IMG/VR virus record: IMGVR_UViG_2778261565_000018
Location: 1-36,928 of that record
Strand: one strand, 5' to 3'
From: a virus
Lineage: Duplodnaviria > Heunggongvirae > Uroviricota > Caudoviricetes
DNA: 36,928 nucleotides
Positions 2,686-17,208 of the stretch are shown here, in pieces (within the stretch, counting starts at the first letter, position 1; each line of letters opens with the position of its first letter). The notes below the pieces were generated by a model, which saw only the letters and a list, made by a program, of their open reading frames with translations, did no database searches and was not told where the DNA came from. The position numbers and the translations under genes are program-made.

Positions 2686-2712
2686 CGCAAAGTCTCCGCA
2701 ATTACACGCAAG

Positions 2713-6951: not shown

Positions 6952-7084
6952 TTTTTGGGACTCCTGGCTGATTAAGTATGTCGATAAGGCGTTTCCATCC
7001 GTCACGTAATTTACGGGTGATTCGTTCAAGTAAAGATTCGGAAGGGCAGCCAGCAACAGGCCACCCTGCAATGGCATATTGCAT
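6920..7084 (-). CDS. cIII: CIII (FtsH inhibitor), 54 aa
   Basis: Hand-translated [54 protein letters not shown]; overlaps kil 5' end by 32 nt. Confidence 0.85.
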   Translation of the reverse strand: MQYAIAGWPVAGCPSESLLERITRKLRDGWKRLIDILNQPGVPKNGSNTYGYPD

Positions 7085-7156
7085 GGTGTGCTCCTTATTT
7101 ATACATAACGAAAAACGCCTCGAGTGAAGCGTTATTGGTATGCGGTAACGCAGCGC

Positions 7157-8454: not shown

Positions 8455-8727
8455 TCATCTTGCTGTCAGTTGTTTGGATTTCCGGTAGCCTGCCGCGTAA
8501 AGAGCTACGTTCGGAAGACAAGTTGAACCTTCATATTTTCTGGTCAACGTTGTCAGTGTTATTACTTCTGCTCTCATTGCTGGTTTGCGCTTGCATTGCA
8601 AGACCACTCGTGAAGGGGTTGGCCTGTGTAGCTTGTCGGAGCTGATCGCCTCCTGACTTTGCAGATTTGCGCGACGAGCTCTACGGCGAGAAGCTGCGGT
8701 GCCTTTAAATTCTGTTTTTCTGGACAT
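8455..8727 (-). CDS. N: N-like transcription antiterminator (P22 gene 24 type), 90 aa
   Basis: Arginine-rich motif GTAASRRRARRANL; C terminus VALYAAGYRKSKQLTAR resembles P22-type N; GGAGG RBS; sits downstream of nutL. Confidence 0.75.
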   Translation of the reverse strand: MSRKTEFKGTAASRRRARRANLQSQEAISSDKLHRPTPSRVVLQCKRKPAMRAEVITLTTLTRKYEGSTCLPNVALYAAGYRKSKQLTAR

Positions 8728-8752
8728 GGATTCCTCCCGAATAAACTTTGGC

Positions 8753-8800
8753 GATGCAATCTCGAAGCTCCTCCTGAGACGGTTGCTTCGGCATTGCATC
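8753..8800 (-). promoter_or_regulatory. Extended N-leader hairpin (candidate RNase III or translational control element)
   Basis: GATGCAAT..CGAAGC-16 nt loop-GCTTCG..ATTGCATC, about 14 bp of pairing between nutL and the N RBS. Confidence 0.35.
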
Positions 8801-8825
8801 CCACAGCTTATGTGGTTGGGTGATC

Positions 8826-8871
8826 TGGCTTTTCAGCCACGTAGTCGAGAGTCGACGTTGTTTAAAGAGCC
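8826..8871 (-). promoter_or_regulatory. nutL: nutL (boxA GGCTCTTTAA; boxB UGGCU-GAAA-AGCCA)
   Basis: Minus-strand read; near-identical architecture to nutR at 11505-11550. Confidence 0.6.
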
Positions 8872-8916
8872 TGCCAGTCTGTTCCATTTGGCTTCCAGCG
8901 TCCTGCTGACGGTTAA

Positions 8917-8995
8917 ATAGTACGATATGTACTTTACAAGATCAATACAATTTGTTGTAAGTTGGCGTGGTTTTTTATAACGCTTTGTATTTAAT
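8917..8995 (-). promoter_or_regulatory. pL promoter with OL operator region
   Basis: Minus-strand TTGATC (-35), 17 bp, TACTAT (-10); motifs ATATGTACTTTAC and ACGCTTTGTA shared with OR. Confidence 0.45.
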
Positions 8996-9130
8996 AGTGT
9001 TGTTTTTTAGCGTGGATGTATTGTCTCGGCGATGTAAGGAGAGATCAGAATTGCGTGGTTTAGTGGGTTGCATCTATTTATTTTTCAATAAATATAATTG
9101 GTTATGTGTTTTTAGGTGGGCGAACGTGAG

Positions 9131-9158
9131 GCAAAGAAAACCCGGCGCTGAGGCCGGG
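9131..9158 (-). terminator. Intrinsic terminator ending the cI-distal operon
   Basis: CCCGGC-6 nt loop-GCCGGG followed on minus strand by TTTTCTTTG, 5 nt after the 250-aa ORF stop. Confidence 0.6.
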
Positions 9159-9163
9159 TTGTA

Positions 9164-9916
9164 TTATGCTGCAAGTCTCTTAATCCAAGTCTCTCTTTTG
9201 GAGAATGGTAGAACTTGGCTTGATTCATGGAAGAGTAAGGAGAGTTGTTGCATTTGATCACCAATTGCTTCGCTGTCTATAACAACAAATCTGTTGTTAT
9301 ACTCCTCACTTGAAGCTTTAAGATCAATTAGTTTCCCAAGCAATGAGTAAGCACTATTCCAGCTTCCTCCGTGTTTCACGCTTGATGTAAAAACGTATTT
9401 AGGTATGTCGGTTTTTATTGTTACAGGGACGGTAATTTGATGTCCACTCAAGCCATATACGTTTTCACGAAGAGAAAGTGCGTCTCTAAGCTCTGTGTGA
9501 TATAGATAATCAATAACCATACTTTCAAACTTTTCAGCTTGAACTGGCTGATACCAGTCTAACGACAAAGTTGATGCGAGTATACCAGCTCTAATTATGT
9601 TCGATGTAATCGCACCGACATCCTTTTCTGTTGCCCAAGCAATGATTTCTCCTCGAGCATTGAGTTCTGCGCCTTCTTTAAGCAGTAATTGTCGTATCTC
9701 ATCAAGTCGTTTTTTGGTAAGCGAGATCCCTCTTGCCTCCATATTCATTAAGGCATCGCATCTGTCACTAACTAAATACCTACCATTGACTTCACGGATA
9801 AAGGCACCGACATGCTCTCCATCATCACAGTAAGTGAATGGACTGATAATTCTCAAGGTCTTGCCTATTGGATGGCATTCGAAACCTAGTTGTGAGATCA
9901 CTGTTGAGCACATCAT
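9164..9916 (-). CDS. Hypothetical protein B (250 aa), distal gene of rex-slot cassette
   Basis: ORF track; ATGATG start overlaps upstream ORF stop (ATGA); no family recognised; AT-rich. Confidence 0.6.
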   Translation of the reverse strand: MMCSTVISQLGFECHPIGKTLRIISPFTYCDDGEHVGAFIREVNGRYLVSDRCDALMNMEARGISLTKKRLDEIRQLLLKEGAELNARGEIIAWATEKDVGAITSNIIRAGILASTLSLDWYQPVQAEKFESMVIDYLYHTELRDALSLRENVYGLSGHQITVPVTIKTDIPKYVFTSSVKHGGSWNSAYSLLGKLIDLKASSEEYNNRFVVIDSEAIGDQMQQLSLLFHESSQVLPFSKRETWIKRLAA

Positions 9917-10470
9917 ATTCCAAACCCCATTTGCCCCGACTCATCTTCAAGCGGTAAAGGTATTCTCCCAGAGTAAGTTATGTTCAGATGTTTACAGAAG
10001 TAATTCCAATACCCTACCAGGTCATCTGGGTTTATGTCATCTTCGATTGGAAACGCTATTCTATCACTATAGTATCCAGCTTCTTCATAGTATACATGGT
10101 AGTGAGCACCGTAAATGATATCTTGGTACTTCGGATGATCGACCTTGTAACTATTCGTGTGTTTGTCAAAGTGATAGGTATCTACCGCGAAAACCCTCTT
10201 GTTATGATAGAAAGCAATAATATTTATTTTAGGGTAAGAAATCGGGTCATCAGGTTCTGAATCCTGATCTGGTTTCCATTTCAGTTCAAACTTTAGCCCT
10301 TGTATAGGTATACAATCCTCATCCAAGGGGATGATATGAGCTTGTAGCCACATATCAGAGCGACTTGGTTTCTGTTTCCATTTAACGCCAGAAAAGTTAA
10401 CTATTTTTTTACAATAAAGTACTTTATCAACTTCTACTTGGCTTGGCTGATAATCATCTATTTTTGCCAA
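9913..10470 (-). CDS. Hypothetical protein A (up to 185 aa), proximal gene of rex-slot cassette
   Basis: ORF track; co-directional with cI, 39 nt downstream; only a TTG start at 10470 or an internal ATG near 10353; no family recognised. Confidence 0.5.
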   Translation of the reverse strand: MAKIDDYQPSQVEVDKVLYCKKIVNFSGVKWKQKPSRSDMWLQAHIIPLDEDCIPIQGLKFELKWKPDQDSEPDDPISYPKINIIAFYHNKRVFAVDTYHFDKHTNSYKVDHPKYQDIIYGAHYHVYYEEAGYYSDRIAFPIEDDINPDDLVGYWNYFCKHLNITYSGRIPLPLEDESGQMGFGI

Positions 10471-10509
10471 TGTTTACCGCCCTGTAAATTGTAGATAAAA
10501 GTGGTTTCA

Positions 10510-11169
10510 TCACCCAAACGTCTCTTCAGGCCATTGGCTGGCGATAACTTTCCCCACAACGGAACAACTCTCATTGCATGGGATCATTGGGTATTGTGGG
10601 TTTAGTGGCTGTAGAAACACCTGACCGCTATCCCTGATCAGTTTCTTGAAGGTAAATTCATCACCACCAAGTCTGGCTATGCAGAAATCGCCGGGCTCAA
10701 CAGCTTGCTCAGGGTCAACCAGAATTAACATCCCGTCAGGAAAGCTGGGTTTGGAACCTGTTGGTGCGGTCATTGAGTTACCTTCAACCTCAAGCCAGAA
10801 TGCAGAGTCACTGGCTTTTTTGGTTGTGCTTACCAATCTCTCCGCATCGCCTTTGGTAAAGGTTCTGAGTTCTGGAGAGAACATCCCAGCCTGAACATGA
10901 GAAAAAACAGGGTACTCATATTGTTTTTTAACTGGGGCCGATGAGTATTCGCCAACAGGTGAAAATGTCCCGTCGTGGTTGAATGATATGTTATCAATAC
11001 CAAGGTATTTAAACACCACACCAATATCACTAAGAGATGGATGACGAGATCCGCGCAACCAGTGTCCAATCCCACCCTGCGTCATACCTAGCTCTTCGGC
11101 TAACTTCTCTTGAGTTATGCCGAGCTCTTTCATTCTGGATCTAGCCAGTTCATACCATTTCATTTTCAT
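10510..11169 (-). CDS. cI: CI-type repressor: XRE-family HTH N-domain plus lambda-cI-identical C-terminal S24 domain
   Basis: C-terminal about 135 aa ([21 protein letters not shown]...QWPEETFG) match lambda cI; N-terminal HTH differs; start taken at MKMKWYEL, alternatives upstream. Confidence 0.9.
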
Positions 11170-11278
11170 GTCCTTATTATTACGCTTTGTACTGGAACCA
11201 TCCATGCACAATGTGTATTTTTACTTGTATTCGTAAAGTACATATTGTATTTTTATTCGTGTTTACTATGGAGGGCAT
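11170..11278 (+). promoter_or_regulatory. OR operator region with divergent pR/pRM
   Basis: Between divergent cI and cro; TTGTAT-17 bp-TATTTT candidate pR; motifs GTAAAGTACATAT and ACGCTTTGTA shared with OL. Confidence 0.5.
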
Positions 11279-11494
11279 ATGAGCAACCTACGAAAATATC
11301 GAGAGTCACTGAATATCTCTCAAACAACACTTGCTAAGGCAGTTGGATGCACACAGGGAGCTATCGGACATTGGGAATCTGGTCGTCGCTTCCCAGACCT
11401 TAAAACATGCCGTGCTCTTGTTGCATGCCTAAACAAGTTAGGCGCAAAAGTCAGTCTTGATGACGTGTTCCCGCCGGAACACAAAGCCGCTTAA
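11279..11494 (+). CDS. cro: Cro-like repressor (HTH), 71 aa, non-lambda type
   Basis: HTH motif ISQTTLAKAVGCTQGAIGHWESG; first rightward gene from OR; GGAGGG RBS. Confidence 0.8.
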   Translation: MSNLRKYRESLNISQTTLAKAVGCTQGAIGHWESGRRFPDLKTCRALVACLNKLGAKVSLDDVFPPEHKAA

Positions 11495-11504
11495 TAAGCG
11501 GATC

Positions 11505-11550
11505 CGCTCTTTGTAACAACGGACATTCGTCCTACGTCGCTGAAAAGCGA
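11505..11550 (+). promoter_or_regulatory. nutR: nutR (boxA CGCTCTTT; boxB UCGCU-GAAA-AGCGA)
   Basis: boxA-like motif then GNRA-loop hairpin; mirrors nutL. Confidence 0.6.
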
Positions 11551-11579
11551 GTTCCAAGATATCTGACCAACTAAGGCCA

Positions 11580-11597
11580 TATGCGTTTCCACGCATA
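11580..11597 (+). terminator. Candidate tR1-region hairpin
   Basis: TATGCGT-ttcc-ACGCATA between nutR and cII; no strong T-run. Confidence 0.3.
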
Positions 11598-11635
11598 CCT
11601 TTCAACTAACTATTCACTATTGGAAATCTTAAGAA

Positions 11636-11932
11636 ATGGAAAGAACAAGTTACAGCAAACTATCACAGCGTGACGTTGATCGCGCAGAAACAGATTTACT
11701 TATCAATCTGTCAGCTATTACCCAGCGCGGTCTGGCAAAGATGATTGGCTGTCATGAATCGAAGATAAGCAGAACGGACTGGAGATTTATTGCTTCGGTC
11801 TTGTGTGCTTTCGGAATGGCATCAGACATAAGTCCGATTAGCAGGGCTTTTAAGTATGCGCTTGATGGATTCACCAATAAAAAACGCCCGGCGGCAACCG
11901 AGCGTTCTGAACAAATCCAGATGGAATTCTGA
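11636..11932 (+). CDS. cII: CII transcriptional activator (hybrid: lambda-identical C terminus)
   Basis: C-terminal NKKRPAATERSEQIQMEF matches lambda CII; N-terminal part differs. Confidence 0.85.
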   Translation: MERTSYSKLSQRDVDRAETDLLINLSAITQRGLAKMIGCHESKISRTDWRFIASVLCAFGMASDISPISRAFKYALDGFTNKKRPAATERSEQIQMEF

Positions 11933-11964
11933 GGTCATTACTGGATCAATCCACAGGAGTCATT

Positions 11965-12864
11965 ATGACAAATACAGCAAAAATACTCAACTTCTGCAGA
12001 GGTAACTTTGCCAAACAGGAGCGTAATGTGGCAGATCTCGATGATGGTTACGCCAGACTATCAAATATGCTGCTTGAGGCTTATTCGGGCGCAGATCTGA
12101 CCAAGCGACAGTTTAAAGTGCTGCTTGCCATTCTGCGTAAAACCTATGGGTGGAATAAACCAATGGACAGAATCACCGATTCTCAACTTAGCGAGATTAC
12201 AAAGTTACCTGTCAAACGGTGCAATGAAGCCAAGTTAGAACTCGTCAGAATGAATATTATCAAGCAGCAAGGCGGCATGTTTGGACCAAATAAAAACATC
12301 TCAGAATGGTGTATCCCTCAAAACGAGGGACAATCCCCTAAAACGAGGGATAAAACATCCCTCAAATTGGGGGATTGCTATCCCTCAAAACAGGGGGACA
12401 CAAAAGACACTATTACAAAAGAAAAAAGAAAAGATTATTCGTCAGAGAATTCTGGCGAATCCTCTGACCAGCCAGAAAACGATCTTTCTGTGGTTAAACC
12501 GGATGCTGCAATTCAGAGCGGCAGCAAGTGGGGGACAGCAGAAGACCTGACCGCCGCAGAGTGGATGTTTGACATGGTGAAGACTATCGCACCATCAGCC
12601 AGAAAACCGAATTTTGCTGGGTGGGCTAACGATATCCGCCTGATGCGTGAACGTGACGGACGTAACCACCGCGACATGTGCGTGCTGTTCCGCTGGGCAT
12701 GCCAGGACAACTTCTGGTCCGGTAACGTGCTGAGCCCGGCCAAACTCCGCGATAAGTGGACCCAACTCGAAATCAACCGTAACAAGCAACAGGCTGGCGT
12801 GACAGCCGGAAAACCAAAACTCGACCTGACAAACACTGACTGGATTTACGGGGTGGATCTATGA
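11965..12864 (+). CDS. O: Replication initiator O, 299 aa
   Basis: Protein recognised as lambda O; contains ori iterons. Confidence 0.95.
   Translation: MTNTAKILNFCRGNFAKQERNVADLDDGYARLSNMLLEAYSGADLTKRQFKVLLAILRKTYGWNKPMDRITDSQLSEITKLPVKRCNEAKLELVRMNIIKQQGGMFGPNKNISEWCIPQNEGQSPKTRDKTSLKLGDCYPSKQGDTKDTITKEKRKDYSSENSGESSDQPENDLSVVKPDAAIQSGSKWGTAEDLTAAEWMFDMVKTIAPSARKPNFAGWANDIRLMRERDGRNHRDMCVLFRWACQDNFWSGNVLSPAKLRDKWTQLEINRNKQQAGVTAGKPKLDLTNTDWIYGVDL
12312..12440 (+). repeat. ori-lambda: four about 19-bp iterons (ATCCCTCAAAACGAGGG-like) plus AT-rich region
   Basis: Four tandem iteron copies at about 12312-12399 followed by A-rich tract, inside O. Confidence 0.9.
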
Positions 12865-13562
12865 AAAACATCGCCGCACAGATGGTTAACTTTGACCGTG
12901 AGCAGATGCGTCGGATCGCCAACAACATGCCGGAACAGTACGACGAAAAGCCACAGGTACAGCAGGTAGCGCAGATCATCAACGGTGTGTTCAGCCAGTT
13001 ACTGGCAACTTTCCCGGCGAGTCTGGCTAACCGTGACCAGAACGAACTGAACGAAATCCGTCGCCAGTGGGTTCTGGCTTTTCGGGAAAACGGGATCACC
13101 ACGATGGAACAGGTTAACGCAGGAATGCGCGTAGCCCGTCGGCAGAATCGACCATTTCTGCCATCACCCGGGCAGTTTGTTGCATGGTGCCGGGAAGAAG
13201 CATCCGTTATCGCCGGACTGCCAAACGTCAGCGAGCTGGTTGATATGGTTTACGAGTATTGCCGGAAGCGAGGCCTGTATCCGGATGCGGAGTCTTATCC
13301 GTGGAAATCAAACGCGCACTACTGGCTGGTTACCAACCTGTATCAGAACATGCGGGCCAATGCGCTTACTGATGCGGAATTACGCCGTAAGGCCGCAGAT
13401 GAGCTTGTCCATATGACTGCGAGAATTAACCGTGGTGAGGCGATCCCTGAACCAGTAAAACAACTTCCTGTCATGGGCGGTAGACCTCTAAATCGTGCAC
13501 AGGCTCTGGCGAAGATCGCAGAAATCAAAGCTAAGTTCGGACTAAAAGGAGCAAGTGTATGA
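12861..13562 (+). CDS. P: Replication protein P (DnaB loader), 233 aa
   Basis: Protein recognised as lambda P. Confidence 0.95.
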   Translation: MKNIAAQMVNFDREQMRRIANNMPEQYDEKPQVQQVAQIINGVFSQLLATFPASLANRDQNELNEIRRQWVLAFRENGITTMEQVNAGMRVARRQNRPFLPSPGQFVAWCREEASVIAGLPNVSELVDMVYEYCRKRGLYPDAESYPWKSNAHYWLVTNLYQNMRANALTDAELRRKAADELVHMTARINRGEAIPEPVKQLPVMGGRPLNRAQALAKIAEIKAKFGLKGASV

Positions 13563-13849
13563 CGGGCAAAGAGGCAATTATTCATTACCTGGGGACGCAT
13601 AATAGCTTCTGTGCGCCGGACGTTGCCGCGCTAACAGGCGCAACAGTAACCAGCATAAATCAGGCCGCGGCTAAAATGGCACGGGCAGGTCTTCTGGTTA
13701 TCGAAGGTAAGGTCTGGCGAACGGTGTATTACCGGTTTGCTACTAGGGAAGAACGGGAAGGAAAGATGAGCACGAACCTGATTTTTAAGGAGTGTCGCCA
13801 GAGTGCCGCGATGAAACGGGTATTGGCGGTATATGGAGTTAAAAGATGA
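13559..13849 (+). CDS. ren: Ren, 96 aa
   Basis: Protein recognised as lambda Ren. Confidence 0.9.
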   Translation: MTGKEAIIHYLGTHNSFCAPDVAALTGATVTSINQAAAKMARAGLLVIEGKVWRTVYYRFATREEREGKMSTNLIFKECRQSAAMKRVLAVYGVKR

Positions 13850-13874
13850 CCATCTACATTACTGAGCTAATAAC

Positions 13875-13906
13875 AGGCCTGCTGGTAATCGCAGGCCTTT
13901 TTATTT
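13875..13906 (+). terminator. Intrinsic terminator (tR2-like) before nin region
   Basis: AGGCCTGC-8 nt loop-GCAGGCCT followed by TTTTTATTT. Confidence 0.75.
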
Positions 13907-13922
13907 GGGGGAGAGGGAAGTC

Positions 13923-14363
13923 ATGAAAAAACTAACCTTTGAAATTCGATCTCCAGCACATCAGCAAAACGCTATTCACGCAGTACAGCAAATCCTTCCA
14001 GACCCAACCAAACCAATCGTAGTAACCATTCAGGAACGCAACCGCAGCTTAGACCAAAACAGGAAGCTATGGGCCTGCTTAGGTGACGTCTCTCGTCAGG
14101 TTGAATGGCATGGTCGCTGGCTGGATGCAGAAAGCTGGAAGTGTGTGTTTACCGCAGCATTAAAGCAGCAGGATGTTGTTCCTAACCTTGCCGGGAATGG
14201 CTTTGTGGTAATAGGCCAGTCAACCAGCAGGATGCGTGTAGGCGAATTTGCGGAGCTATTAGAGCTTATACAGGCATTCGGTACAGAGCGTGGCGTTAAG
14301 TGGTCAGACGAAGCGAGACTGGCTCTGGAGTGGAAAGCGAGATGGGGAGATCGGGCTGCATGA
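13923..14363 (+). CDS. ninB: NinB (Orf family recombination protein), 146 aa
   Basis: MKKLTFEIRSPAHQQNAIHAVQQ matches lambda NinB. Confidence 0.9.
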   Translation: MKKLTFEIRSPAHQQNAIHAVQQILPDPTKPIVVTIQERNRSLDQNRKLWACLGDVSRQVEWHGRWLDAESWKCVFTAALKQQDVVPNLAGNGFVVIGQSTSRMRVGEFAELLELIQAFGTERGVKWSDEARLALEWKARWGDRAA

Positions 14364-14887
14364 CTATCAAATCAAATACGCCAGCACACGACAAGGACTG
14401 CTGGCAAACGCCGCTTTGGCTTTTTGATGCACTGGATATTGAGTTTGGATTCTGGCTGGATTCGGCAGCGAGCGACAAAAATGCTCTGTGTGCTCACTGG
14501 CTAACTGAGGCCGACGACGCGCTCAATTCTGAGTGGGTAAGCCACGGTGCAATCTGGAATAACCCACCGTACAGCAATATCAGGCCGTGGGTGGAAAAAG
14601 CCGCTGAGCAGTGCATACAACAGCGACAGACGGTAGTTATGCTTGTGCCAGAGGATATGTCAGTCGGATGGTTCAGCAAGGCTCTGGAGAGTATTGACGA
14701 AGTTCGCATCATCACTGATGGACGGATTAATTTTATCGAACCATCGACAGGGCTGGAGAAGAAGGGAAACAGCAAAGGTTCCATGCTGCTGATTTGGCGA
14801 CCGTTCATCAATCCTCGACGGATGTTTACTACCGTATCCAAAGCGGCATTGATGGCGATCGGGCAGGGCGTCAGGAGGGCAGCATGA
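14360..14887 (+). CDS. Phage-type DNA N6-adenine methyltransferase (Dam-like, orphan), 175 aa
   Basis: NPPY catalytic motif ([10 protein letters not shown]); occupies the lambda ninC/ninD slot; ATGA coupling with ninB. Confidence 0.8.
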
Positions 14888-16482: not shown

Positions 16483-16961
16483 GAGAACTAAACCTCACCA
16501 AAGAACAGCATGAGTGGCTGAATGGCTGGCTTGAACTGTGGGGCGCATGGGTTTATTCAGGTCGTCTGGAAAAGCGCATGAGCAGCGTAATAGCGACGTT
16601 CATGGAGAGCGTAGAGCCGGGAAGAGTTATGACAAGGCCAATGTGTAATGATGATGATGGAATGTTGATTTCTCAGGTCGTCGATTCCGTCATGTACATT
16701 GACAAGAAAGCCTTTGGAATCCTCCTCAGCTACTACGCTCATGGCTCTTCCAAGCACGCCATTGCATCTTACTATCATCGCGTCGCAAGACCTCGCAAGA
16801 TGTTATGCCGTGGCGGCGGGCGCATTCAAAAACCATCGCTCGCAACCTGTCGACGGGAAGTTGACGAAATCCTTAATGCCTCGTTGTTTATGATTTACCC
16901 GGTTCTGGATAGTGCGTTTAAAAATCGGAAACGTGTAGAGAAAATTAAACATGTAGCATAG
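16473..16961 (+). CDS. Q: Late-gene antiterminator Q (non-lambda type), about 162 aa
   Basis: Position between nin genes and lysis cassette; not lambda Q; GTG start overlapping ninI stop, start uncertain. Confidence 0.6.
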
Positions 16962-17052: not shown

Positions 17053-17127
17053 GGGTCAGTCGTATAAAGGTCATTACGGAAGGCTGTTAACCTTCTTATC
17101 GTGGTTCGAGTCCACGCTGTCCCGCCA
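17053..17127 (+). tRNA. tRNA-like gene, anticodon GUU (Asn) by manual fold; one U-U mismatch in acceptor stem
   Basis: Hand-folded cloverleaf: 5-bp anticodon stem GAAGG/CCTTC, loop CTGTTAA, T-arm CGTGG-TTCGAGT-CCACG, 3' GCCA. Confidence 0.5.
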
Positions 17128-17132
17128 AATAT

Positions 17133-17208
17133 GCTGGTTTAGCTCCAATGGTAGAGCAGTCGCCTTGTAAGCGAATGGGTAGCGGTTCAAGTCCGTTAAC
17201 CAGCACCA
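17133..17208 (+). tRNA. tRNA, anticodon UGU (Thr) by manual fold, encoded CCA
   Basis: Perfect 7-bp acceptor stem GCTGGTT/AACCAGC, D-arm GCTC/GAGC, anticodon loop CTTGTAA, T-loop TTCAAGT, ACCA end. Confidence 0.65.

Follow-up and report, generated by a model that had tools for sequence, protein, structure and literature searches.

We analysed the immunity region of a tailed-phage sequence (IMG/VR record IMGVR_UViG_2778261565_000018), taken as a single stretch of 36,928 nt that is called the window here and whose positions serve as coordinates throughout, with lambda NC_001416 as reference. With a probability that we put at nearly nine in ten, this region, which holds the repressor gene cI together with cro and cII, is a functioning lysis/lysogeny switch of a lambda-like Escherichia coli prophage, built from four interchangeable modules. 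Specificity would reside in the first, made up of the cI N-terminal helix-turn-helix (HTH) domain, the operators OR1-3 and OL1-3 and cro, of the 'cI2c/cro4' type found in Stx2 II, 1717 and VT2-Sakai. The second, a lambda/HK97-type cI C-terminal domain, is predicted to provide dimerisation, cooperative contacts and RecA-stimulated self-cleavage at an Ala-Gly bond; the third is a cII body of the 21/HK97/HK022 type, and the fourth a lambda-type replication module that begins at the 3' end of the oop RNA, takes in the last 19 cII codons and continues through O and P. The chimera is a widespread and already published immunity type, and represents ordinary lambdoid mosaicism and not a new event.

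About half of the first 25 kb of the window matches lambda at about 97%, and none of the open reading frames of cI, cro, cII, N, O and P is interrupted. Lambda DNA matches positions 10509-10920 (93.4%, 27 mismatches, ungapped) and 11871-14363 (99.0%), with no lambda match between the two. The first of these segments encodes the C-terminal part of the repressor, in which residues 102-237 of lambda cI (initiator Met counted) correspond to window residues 96-231 at 135 of 136 positions (tblastn 99.3%, E=6e-93), the sole change being W to L in 'AERW/LVST'. Nucleotide identity over this domain rises from 93.4% to lambda and 94.3% to HK97 to 98.5% to Stx2 II and 100% to PhiR57_1. When compared codon by codon with lambda, 26 of the differing codons were synonymous and one was non-synonymous, and the domain is therefore an old shared module and not a recent piece of lambda; judged by the same comparison it is under strong purifying selection. 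Pfam assigned HTH_3 to cI residues 23-70 (E=2e-10) and Peptidase_S24 to residues 99-221 (E=1e-28), the lambda repressor structure 3bdn was matched at E=2e-96, and the sequence retains the cleavage site VQAGMF, the GNSMTAP serine and the FTFKKL lysine, at positions matching lambda A111-G112, S149 and K192.

The N-terminal part of the repressor has a different affinity. Residues 1-95 aligned with lambda at 28% over 53 residues (E=6e-5), and with HK97 likewise at 28%, a likeness which at this level is generic HTH similarity. No significant similarity of this domain to the repressors of 21, HK022 or P22 was detected, the 434 repressor N-terminal domain, compared through Protein Data Bank (PDB) chains, gave no match to window cI at E<=0.01, and comparison by segment revealed no nucleotide similarity of the domain to lambda, imm21, HK97, HK022 or P22. 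When the DNA of the N-terminal domain, OR and cro was compared with these same five phages and with Stx2 II and PhiR57_1, only the latter two matched it, Stx2 II with identities of 99.3, 93.7 and 98.1% for the three segments respectively; at the protein level the N-terminal domain is 98.9% identical to both. The transition within cI is abrupt. Identity to lambda begins at the TAT codon of Tyr96 (about 10920), the match to the lambda-type cI of HK97 (10514-10920, 94.3%) has this same endpoint, and identity to lambda falls from 93% to undetectable inside about 15 nt.

The adjoining cro gene was assigned to Pfam HTH_3 (E=4e-12), with HTH_31 also assigned, and displayed no detectable similarity to lambda Cro (E=0.9). 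Its closest solved structure was 28tn_A (E=4.5e-17), while P22 C2 was matched at about 0.01 and the 434 repressor at E=0.25-0.3. Its product is identical in amino acid sequence to those of Stx2 II, 1717, 2851 and others, and 69% identical to Cro of Salmonella phage L. By its domain assignment, window cro is thus of the HTH_3/XRE type, 'cro4', and lies outside the lambda Cro family. The 'cro4' type is common to 1717, Stx2 II and VT2-Sa (PMC3430580), and Smith et al. 2012 described the repressor type of the window ('cI2c') as sharing its C-terminus with lambda (PMC3430580).

In cII, which matched Pfam Phage_CII (PF05269) over its full length (E=4e-33) and the lambda CII structure 1xwr (E=3e-9), a second change of partner was found. 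Its body shows 88-94% amino acid and 93-94% nucleotide identity to imm21, HK97, HK022 and Stx2 II (88-90% for the protein against 21, HK97 and HK022), and the DNA of this part has no nucleotide similarity to lambda; residues 1-79 aligned with lambda CII only marginally (33% over 36 amino acids, E=0.17). The last 19 residues (TNKKRPAATERSEQIQMEF), in contrast, are identical to lambda. On these comparisons the cII body is 'foreign' relative to lambda alone, and among the phages compared it is the lambda cII body that is the odd one out. In a three-way alignment, cII followed Stx2 II to about 11866-11870 and lambda from 11871, a switch within about 5 nt, after which identity to lambda stays at 99% through O, P, ren and ninB. 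The cII tail with oop (11871-11964) is 96.8% identical to lambda, as against 81% for Stx2 II, HK97 and HK022.

The position of this joint coincides closely with an RNA gene. A scan for terminator-like sites located the tO hairpin at 11908-11881, with a U-run to 11874 (- strand), an 81-nt stretch at oop folds into two hairpins (z=-3.1), and the joint sits about 7 nt past the oop RNA 3' end. The overlap of cII and oop has been given as 55 nt (PMC3349717), and the joint falls where the same paper sets the right-hand limit of the classical imm21 substitution. As the replication module starts at the oop 3' end, it also supplies the lambda-identical last 19 codons of cII.

The initial annotation had described cI and cII as lambda C-terminal halves joined to foreign N-terminal halves, together with a non-lambda cro. 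The foreignness of the cI N-terminal part, the cII body and cro was borne out on alignment with NC_001416, and the breakpoints expected inside both genes correspond to the sharp joints at about 10920 and 11866-11871. Its wording for the C-terminal parts was too strong in two respects: the cI domain departs from lambda at one residue and in 6.6% of its nucleotides, and the lambda-identical 'half' of cII, while exact, is limited to the last 19 codons.

The operators were likewise found to differ from those of lambda OR and OL, as had been anticipated. Six candidate 17-bp sites, three at OR and three at OL, share a pseudo-palindrome of about TAGTACRnTTTGTAYTT that is unrelated to the lambda sequence TATCACCGCCAGTGGTA, and the DNA of OR and OL, like that of cro, has no nucleotide similarity to lambda. 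All six putative operators annotated in Stx2 II (AP005154) map to the window, three exactly and three with one substitution. A symmetric weight matrix returned these sites as the best six in the window (scores 15.6-20.7; next 11.3), and in a leave-one-out test each of them ranked between 1 and 7 among 36,912 window positions. Candidate promoters could be placed around them: the putative PR lies at about the position of the rightward promoter annotated in AP005154, and the distance from OL to OR is about 2.3 kb, as in lambda.

The same layout bears on where the repressor begins. The true cI start is probably the ATG at 11169 (MKMKWYEL..., 219 amino acids) and not the deposited ATG at 11205 (MDGSS...), which would put candidate OR3 and the PRM -10 within the cI coding sequence; an ATG at 11169 or 11163 (MKMKWYEL or MKWYEL) fits the arrangement of operators and promoters. 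Homologues in Kluyvera, Salmonella and Citrobacter begin at the equivalent of 11163-11169 (MKWYEL, MKTEWYEL or MNWYDI), and inconsistent N-terminal annotation of repressors was remarked upon by Smith et al. 2012 (PMC3430580). Since candidate PRM would start transcription at about ATG 11169, the cI mRNA is likely to be leaderless, as in lambda, and to encode a 219-residue protein; the centre of candidate OR2 lies at about -43 from this ATG, as compared with 42 bp in lambda. For annotation, the deposited cI start codon thus seems to be too far upstream.

Target promoters for CII were also sought. A PRE-like box with one mismatch to TTGC-N6-TTGC occupies cII codons 4-8, the same codons as the corresponding lambda repeat, and perfect TTGC-N6-TTGC matches were found at 2698-2711 (-) and 16785-16798 (-), which is where PI (by mapping of lambda coordinates) and PaQ would be expected. 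This suggests that a 21-type CII body serves lambda-type target promoters. The Rfam lambda cIII thermoregulator element (7039-7097, - strand, 88.5 bits) was located where the 5' end of lambda cIII would fall.

Several observations weigh against so complete a picture of the control sites. The loose pattern TACRNNNYGTA (<=1 mismatch) was not enriched across the window (30 found against 28.5 expected) and was therefore replaced by the leave-one-out weight-matrix test, so that the significant operator evidence consists of the 3+3 clustering and that test only. A sigma-70 scan requiring at least 9 of 12 consensus matches reported none of PR, PRM and PL (about 8/12 each), and the promoter positions hence depend on weaker matches and on agreement with AP005154. 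One-mismatch TTGC-N6-TTGC sites are common by chance in the window, which makes the support for the PRE box positional only. The centre-to-centre spacing of OR1 and OR2 is 32 bp, as against 24 bp in lambda, and the OL spacings are 25 and 33 bp, and with such distances pairwise cooperativity of the lambda kind is not guaranteed. Lastly, no paper with footprints for this repressor type was found. The phage repressor from O104:H4 (BAA2326, '61% identical to lambda') was considered as a member of the window type and rejected, as its footprinted operators (ATAACTGTGCGTAATG and others) differ from those of the window, and it therefore belongs to another immunity type.

By analogy with lambda and from the geometry of the sites, we infer the following mechanism. 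Repressor dimers would bind the six operators of the TACR-N3-YGTA type, and occupancy of OR1/OR2 and OL1/OL2 would turn off PR and PL. The weak PRM would be activated by repressor bound to OR2 (about -43) and would give a probably leaderless cI mRNA from ATG 11169, while OR3, lying over the PRM -10, would mediate negative autoregulation. SOS-activated RecA would bring about repressor cleavage and induction, Cro would occupy the same operators in lytic growth, and CII would activate PRE, PI and PaQ, with OOP RNA acting as a check on CII. A C-terminal domain that matches lambda so closely, with the Ala-Gly site and the Ser/Lys dyad, points to lambda-like dimerisation and RecA-dependent induction, and probably to cooperative binding.

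Judged by its DNA-binding domain, Cro and OR/OL sequence, the window is outside the imm-lambda group; by its DNA-binding domain, Cro and operators it is a member of the cI2c/cro4 immunity type. We infer from this an immunity specificity different from that of lambda, in agreement with how this repressor type has been read in print (PMC3430580). Phages of the Stx2 II/1717/PhiR57_1 type would be expected to be excluded by the lysogen, and those of the lambda, 21, 434, P22-type and HK022 immunity types to infect it. The operator coordinates could be used to predict cross-immunity among E. coli and Shiga-toxin prophages, and the practical value of the analysis is one of annotation, in that the immunity type of this prophage is Stx2 II/1717/PhiR57_1-like and not that of lambda.

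Comparison with individual phages placed each module among its relatives. Stx2 II (AP005154), the Stx1 phage (AP005153), 1717 and VT2-Sakai are of the same 'cI2c / cro4 / N2' immunity type as the window, and the Stx2 II group has an identical cI C-terminal domain (100% of amino acids) and the same joint to it. Stx2 II differs, however, in its cII tail and replication genes, which are HK022-like (63% amino acid identity in the last 19 cII residues, O unrelated), whereas the window carries a lambda-type cII tail, oop, O and P, and different genes between cI and OL. Lambda imm21 (OM418625) offers the complementary likeness, with a 21-type cII body, a ...TERSEQIQMEF tail overlapping oop, and then lambda-type O and P; window positions 11604-14363 are 97.5% identical to it, and the phage-21 cII gene is 90% identical in nucleotides. 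The repressor, cro, N and operators of phage 21 are unrelated to those of the window or distant from them (cI C-terminal domain 46% amino acid identity; no significant match for the N-terminal domain). Lambda, together with HK97, shares the cI C-terminal domain, the three OR and three OL sites and the divergent PRM and PR, but lambda differs in DNA-binding domain, operators, cro family, N and cII body, and its rexAB genes are replaced in the window. Within the phage collection, the distinct specificity modules closest to that of the window were the c2-cro regions of Salmonella L and ST64T, with amino acid identities of 69% for cro and about 55% for the N-terminal domain of the repressor; they come from another host genus and are too diverged for shared operators to be predicted.

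The closest relatives carry the entire arrangement. PhiR57_1 and PhiR63_2 (ECOR-derived), ev207 and ev017 all share with the window N, OL, a two-gene cassette, cI, OR, cro, the chimeric cII and the lambda-type O-P-ren-ninB, with just point differences in this stretch, and a 1.6-kb query (10400-12000) is 99.6% identical to all four. Window positions 8455-14500 are 98.7% identical to PhiR57_1, and a sequenced phage therefore already has the whole combination of modules; PhiR57_1, ev207, ev017 and 2G7b, all of them deposited as complete phage genomes, contain near-identical regions. The same query is 96-97% identical to Stx2 phage 1717, Stx2 II, the Morioka Stx1 phage and the O157:H7 'PA' Stx2a phages; the 62-kb 'PST1-1' members of the PA phages have been equated with the Stx2a prophage of O157:H7 Sakai (PMC4587872). 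The query is 100% identical in E. coli J31, and 80% or more of it was found in 629 of the 5,426 complete E. coli genomes, among them Nissle 1917 and APEC O1.

These data bear directly on three other ways of explaining the region. A single recent cross of lambda itself with a heteroimmune phage, which would make the chimera new in this genome, would account for the 97-99% lambda identity of O-P-ren-ninB and of the cII tail with oop, which does make the right-hand module a close relative of that of lambda. Such an origin is nevertheless hardly credible, for the cI C-terminal domain, at 93.4% identity and with 26 synonymous changes, is further from lambda than from Stx2 II and PhiR57_1 (98.5-100% identity), the complete arrangement is found at 98.7-100% in isolated phages and hundreds of genomes, and the same cI joint is used by three classes of N-terminal domain in several genera. 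The converse proposal dispenses with recombination and has the N-terminal domain, cro and the cII body merely evolve away from a lambda ancestor more rapidly than the conserved C-terminal parts; it could draw on the weak HTH similarity of the cI N-terminal domain to lambda (28% over 53 amino acids, E=6e-5) and on the alignment of cII with lambda CII along its whole length. We give it practically no credence, as gradual divergence fits neither a collapse of identity that takes about 15 nt in cI and some 5 nt in cII nor a cII body that is 93% identical in nucleotides to 21, HK97 and HK022 and whose tail switches partner to lambda, and as the N-terminal domains form discrete classes, all joined at one motif.

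It could also be envisaged that the region is a decayed, non-functional remnant that specifies no immunity. There is precedent in VT2-Sakai, whose cI carries a premature stop, truncated by a single-nucleotide polymorphism according to Smith et al. (PMC3430580), and the Nissle 1917 prophage with this region has been reported as non-inducible. This appears very improbable in view of the intact open reading frames of cI, cro, cII, N, O and P, the presence of all six operators, the strong purifying selection on the cI C-terminal domain and the near-identical regions in the complete-phage records PhiR57_1, ev207, ev017 and 2G7b. A functioning switch built by the exchange of modules is thus the reading that we prefer. 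As an instance of textbook lambdoid modular evolution, with a cI joint between domains and a cII joint at the edge of an RNA gene, it carries little weight as a discovery.

The joint within cI recurs in other repressors. When the cI C-terminal domain alone was used as a database query, 308 clusters were recovered at E<=1e-30, and the 88 full-length representatives with the joint motif fell into three N-terminal classes: the window type (35), a 'MKTMHEIIGERIK...' type (33) and the lambda type (20). In every case the junction lies directly before [YF]xYPxFS, and the same joint was found across several genera. In complete E. coli genomes the DNA of the C-terminal domain occurs as 1,435 copies in 1,211 genomes, with up to three per genome, and the module of N-terminal domain, OR and cro as 802 copies in 776 genomes, the number of carriers among the 5,426 also being put at 773. 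An E. coli repressor of 214 amino acids from outside the window (P0040) belongs to the third N-terminal class and has about 45 divergent residues at the start of its C-terminal domain, followed by lambda-identical sequence; this makes a second mosaic joint, within the C-terminal domain itself, so that the hinge is not the only place where joints occur.

Because a C-terminal domain with 135 of 136 residues identical to lambda is carried on at least three DNA-binding classes, with up to three copies in a genome, it may be asked whether heteroimmune prophages that share a host have repressors that associate as mixed dimers or larger oligomers. We consider this unlikely. If true, it would couple the repression strength or induction thresholds of formally 'heteroimmune' prophages and produce interference unpredicted by classical immunity groups, and such cross-prophage interference through identical oligomerisation domains could be the only idea here of some novelty.

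The cII assignment also has a consequence for published work. In the study of Bury et al. 2018, EcN_1294, a gene of the Nissle 1917 prophage designated 'phage repressor (pr)', was cloned, and the clone was reported to cut the plating of lambda and Stx phages more than 200-fold (PMC5987069). The Nissle region is 99.6% identical to the window, in which the cloning primers match exactly at 11590-11608 and 11939-11958 and the quantitative polymerase chain reaction primers at 11833-11891. The cloned EcN_1294 is thus the cII homologue, plus oop sequence, and not the cI repressor, and the reported protection may result from overexpression of CII (or OOP) rather than from repressor immunity.

Table 1. 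Coordinates of features of the immunity region and its surroundings (window positions)
Feature	Position	Strand	Remarks
cI	10510-11205	-	231 codons in the list of open reading frames; extent annotated in RefSeq and GenBank
cI C-terminal dimerisation/cooperativity/autocleavage domain, lambda/HK97-type module	10510-10920	-	by amino acid and nucleotide identity
Mosaic joint in cI, at the hinge	10915-10925	.	lambda and HK97 nucleotide identity ends at 10920
cI N-terminal HTH DNA-binding domain, non-lambda 'cI2c' specificity type	10921-11169	-	by amino acid comparison
Candidate PRM	11176-11204	-	-35 TGGATG 11204-11199; -10 AATAAT 11181-11176, inside OR3; placed as in AP005154
Candidate OR3 TATTACGCTTTGTACTG	11178-11194	.	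overlaps candidate PRM -10; 1 nt off the AP005154 'putative operator'
Candidate OR2 ATGCACAATGTGTATTT	11204-11220	.	abuts candidate PRM -35; identical to operator annotated in AP005154
Candidate PR	11220-11248	+	-35 TTTACT 11220-11225; -10 TATTGT 11243-11248, within OR1; 8/12 consensus matches
Candidate OR1 AAGTACATATTGTATTT	11236-11252	.	overlaps candidate PR -10; top-scoring site of the window
cro	11279-11494	+	71 amino acids; from the list of open reading frames
nutR boxB-like hairpin core GCTGAAAAGC	11539-11548	+	downstream of cro
cII transcriptional activator	11636-11932	+	98 amino acids; from the list of open reading frames; Pfam Phage_CII
cII body, 21/HK97/HK022/Stx2 II type	11636-11870	+	by amino acid and nucleotide comparison
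Putative PRE-like CII box TTGCTGTAACTTGT	11645-11658	-	one mismatch to TTGC-N6-TTGC
Mosaic joint in cII	11866-11871	.	21/HK97/Stx2 II type to the left, lambda type to the right
oop antisense RNA homologue	11878-11954	-	77 nt by lambda homology
Replication protein O	11965-12864	+	Pfam Phage_rep_O
O and P replication genes, lambda-type module	11965-13562	+	98.9% nucleotide identity to lambda
N antiterminator, non-lambda type	8455-8799	-	Pfam N_peptide, E=2e-32; 114 amino acids
nutL boxB core GCTGAAAAGC	8837-8828	-	upstream of N
Candidate PL	8917-8945	-	-35 8945-8940; -10 8922-8917, inside OL1
Candidate OL1	8918-8934	.	corresponding operator annotated in AP005154
Candidate OL2	8943-8959	.	corresponding operator annotated in AP005154
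Candidate OL3	8976-8992	.	corresponding operator annotated in AP005154
Slot of lambda rexA-rexB	9139-10470	-	two genes of unknown function and a terminator-like hairpin
Terminator-like hairpin after the cassette	9160-9139	-	90% identity to lambda
250-amino-acid gene	9164-9916	-	DUF1828, phrog_1960; overlaps the 185-amino-acid gene
185-amino-acid gene	9913-10470	-	weak DUF6978 match, phrog_2017

The cassette that takes the place of rexA-rexB is flanked by lambda similarity on both sides, at 9039-9160 and from 10509 (the side of the cI stop). In PADLOC its two proteins matched a candidate defence system, PDC-M24A/B, weakly (E=5e-4 and 6e-10). PhiR57_1 also carries the cassette, which is at least 99% identical in 241 of the 5,426 complete E. 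coli genomes, with one copy per genome, and no paper on this rex-slot cassette in a phage-defence context was found. Its position suggests an exclusion or defence module expressed in the lysogen.

The product of N is identical in amino acid sequence to that of Stx2 II, and the boxB core shared by the putative nut sites occurs exactly twice in the window, against 0.17 expected. At gathering thresholds Rfam returned no family for oop or the nut sites, the only families found being the cIII thermoregulator and two tRNAs. In the RefSeq record of J31 the stretch identical to 8455-8887 is annotated as two 'hypothetical proteins' (8455-8727 and 8705-8887), though N reads clearly there. The J31 prophage differs from the window in an extra IS1 and in the region from Q to lysis. 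Adjacent tRNA genes for Asn-GTT and Thr-TGT lie at 17053-17208 (+) in the window, where the J31 prophage has a porin gene instead.

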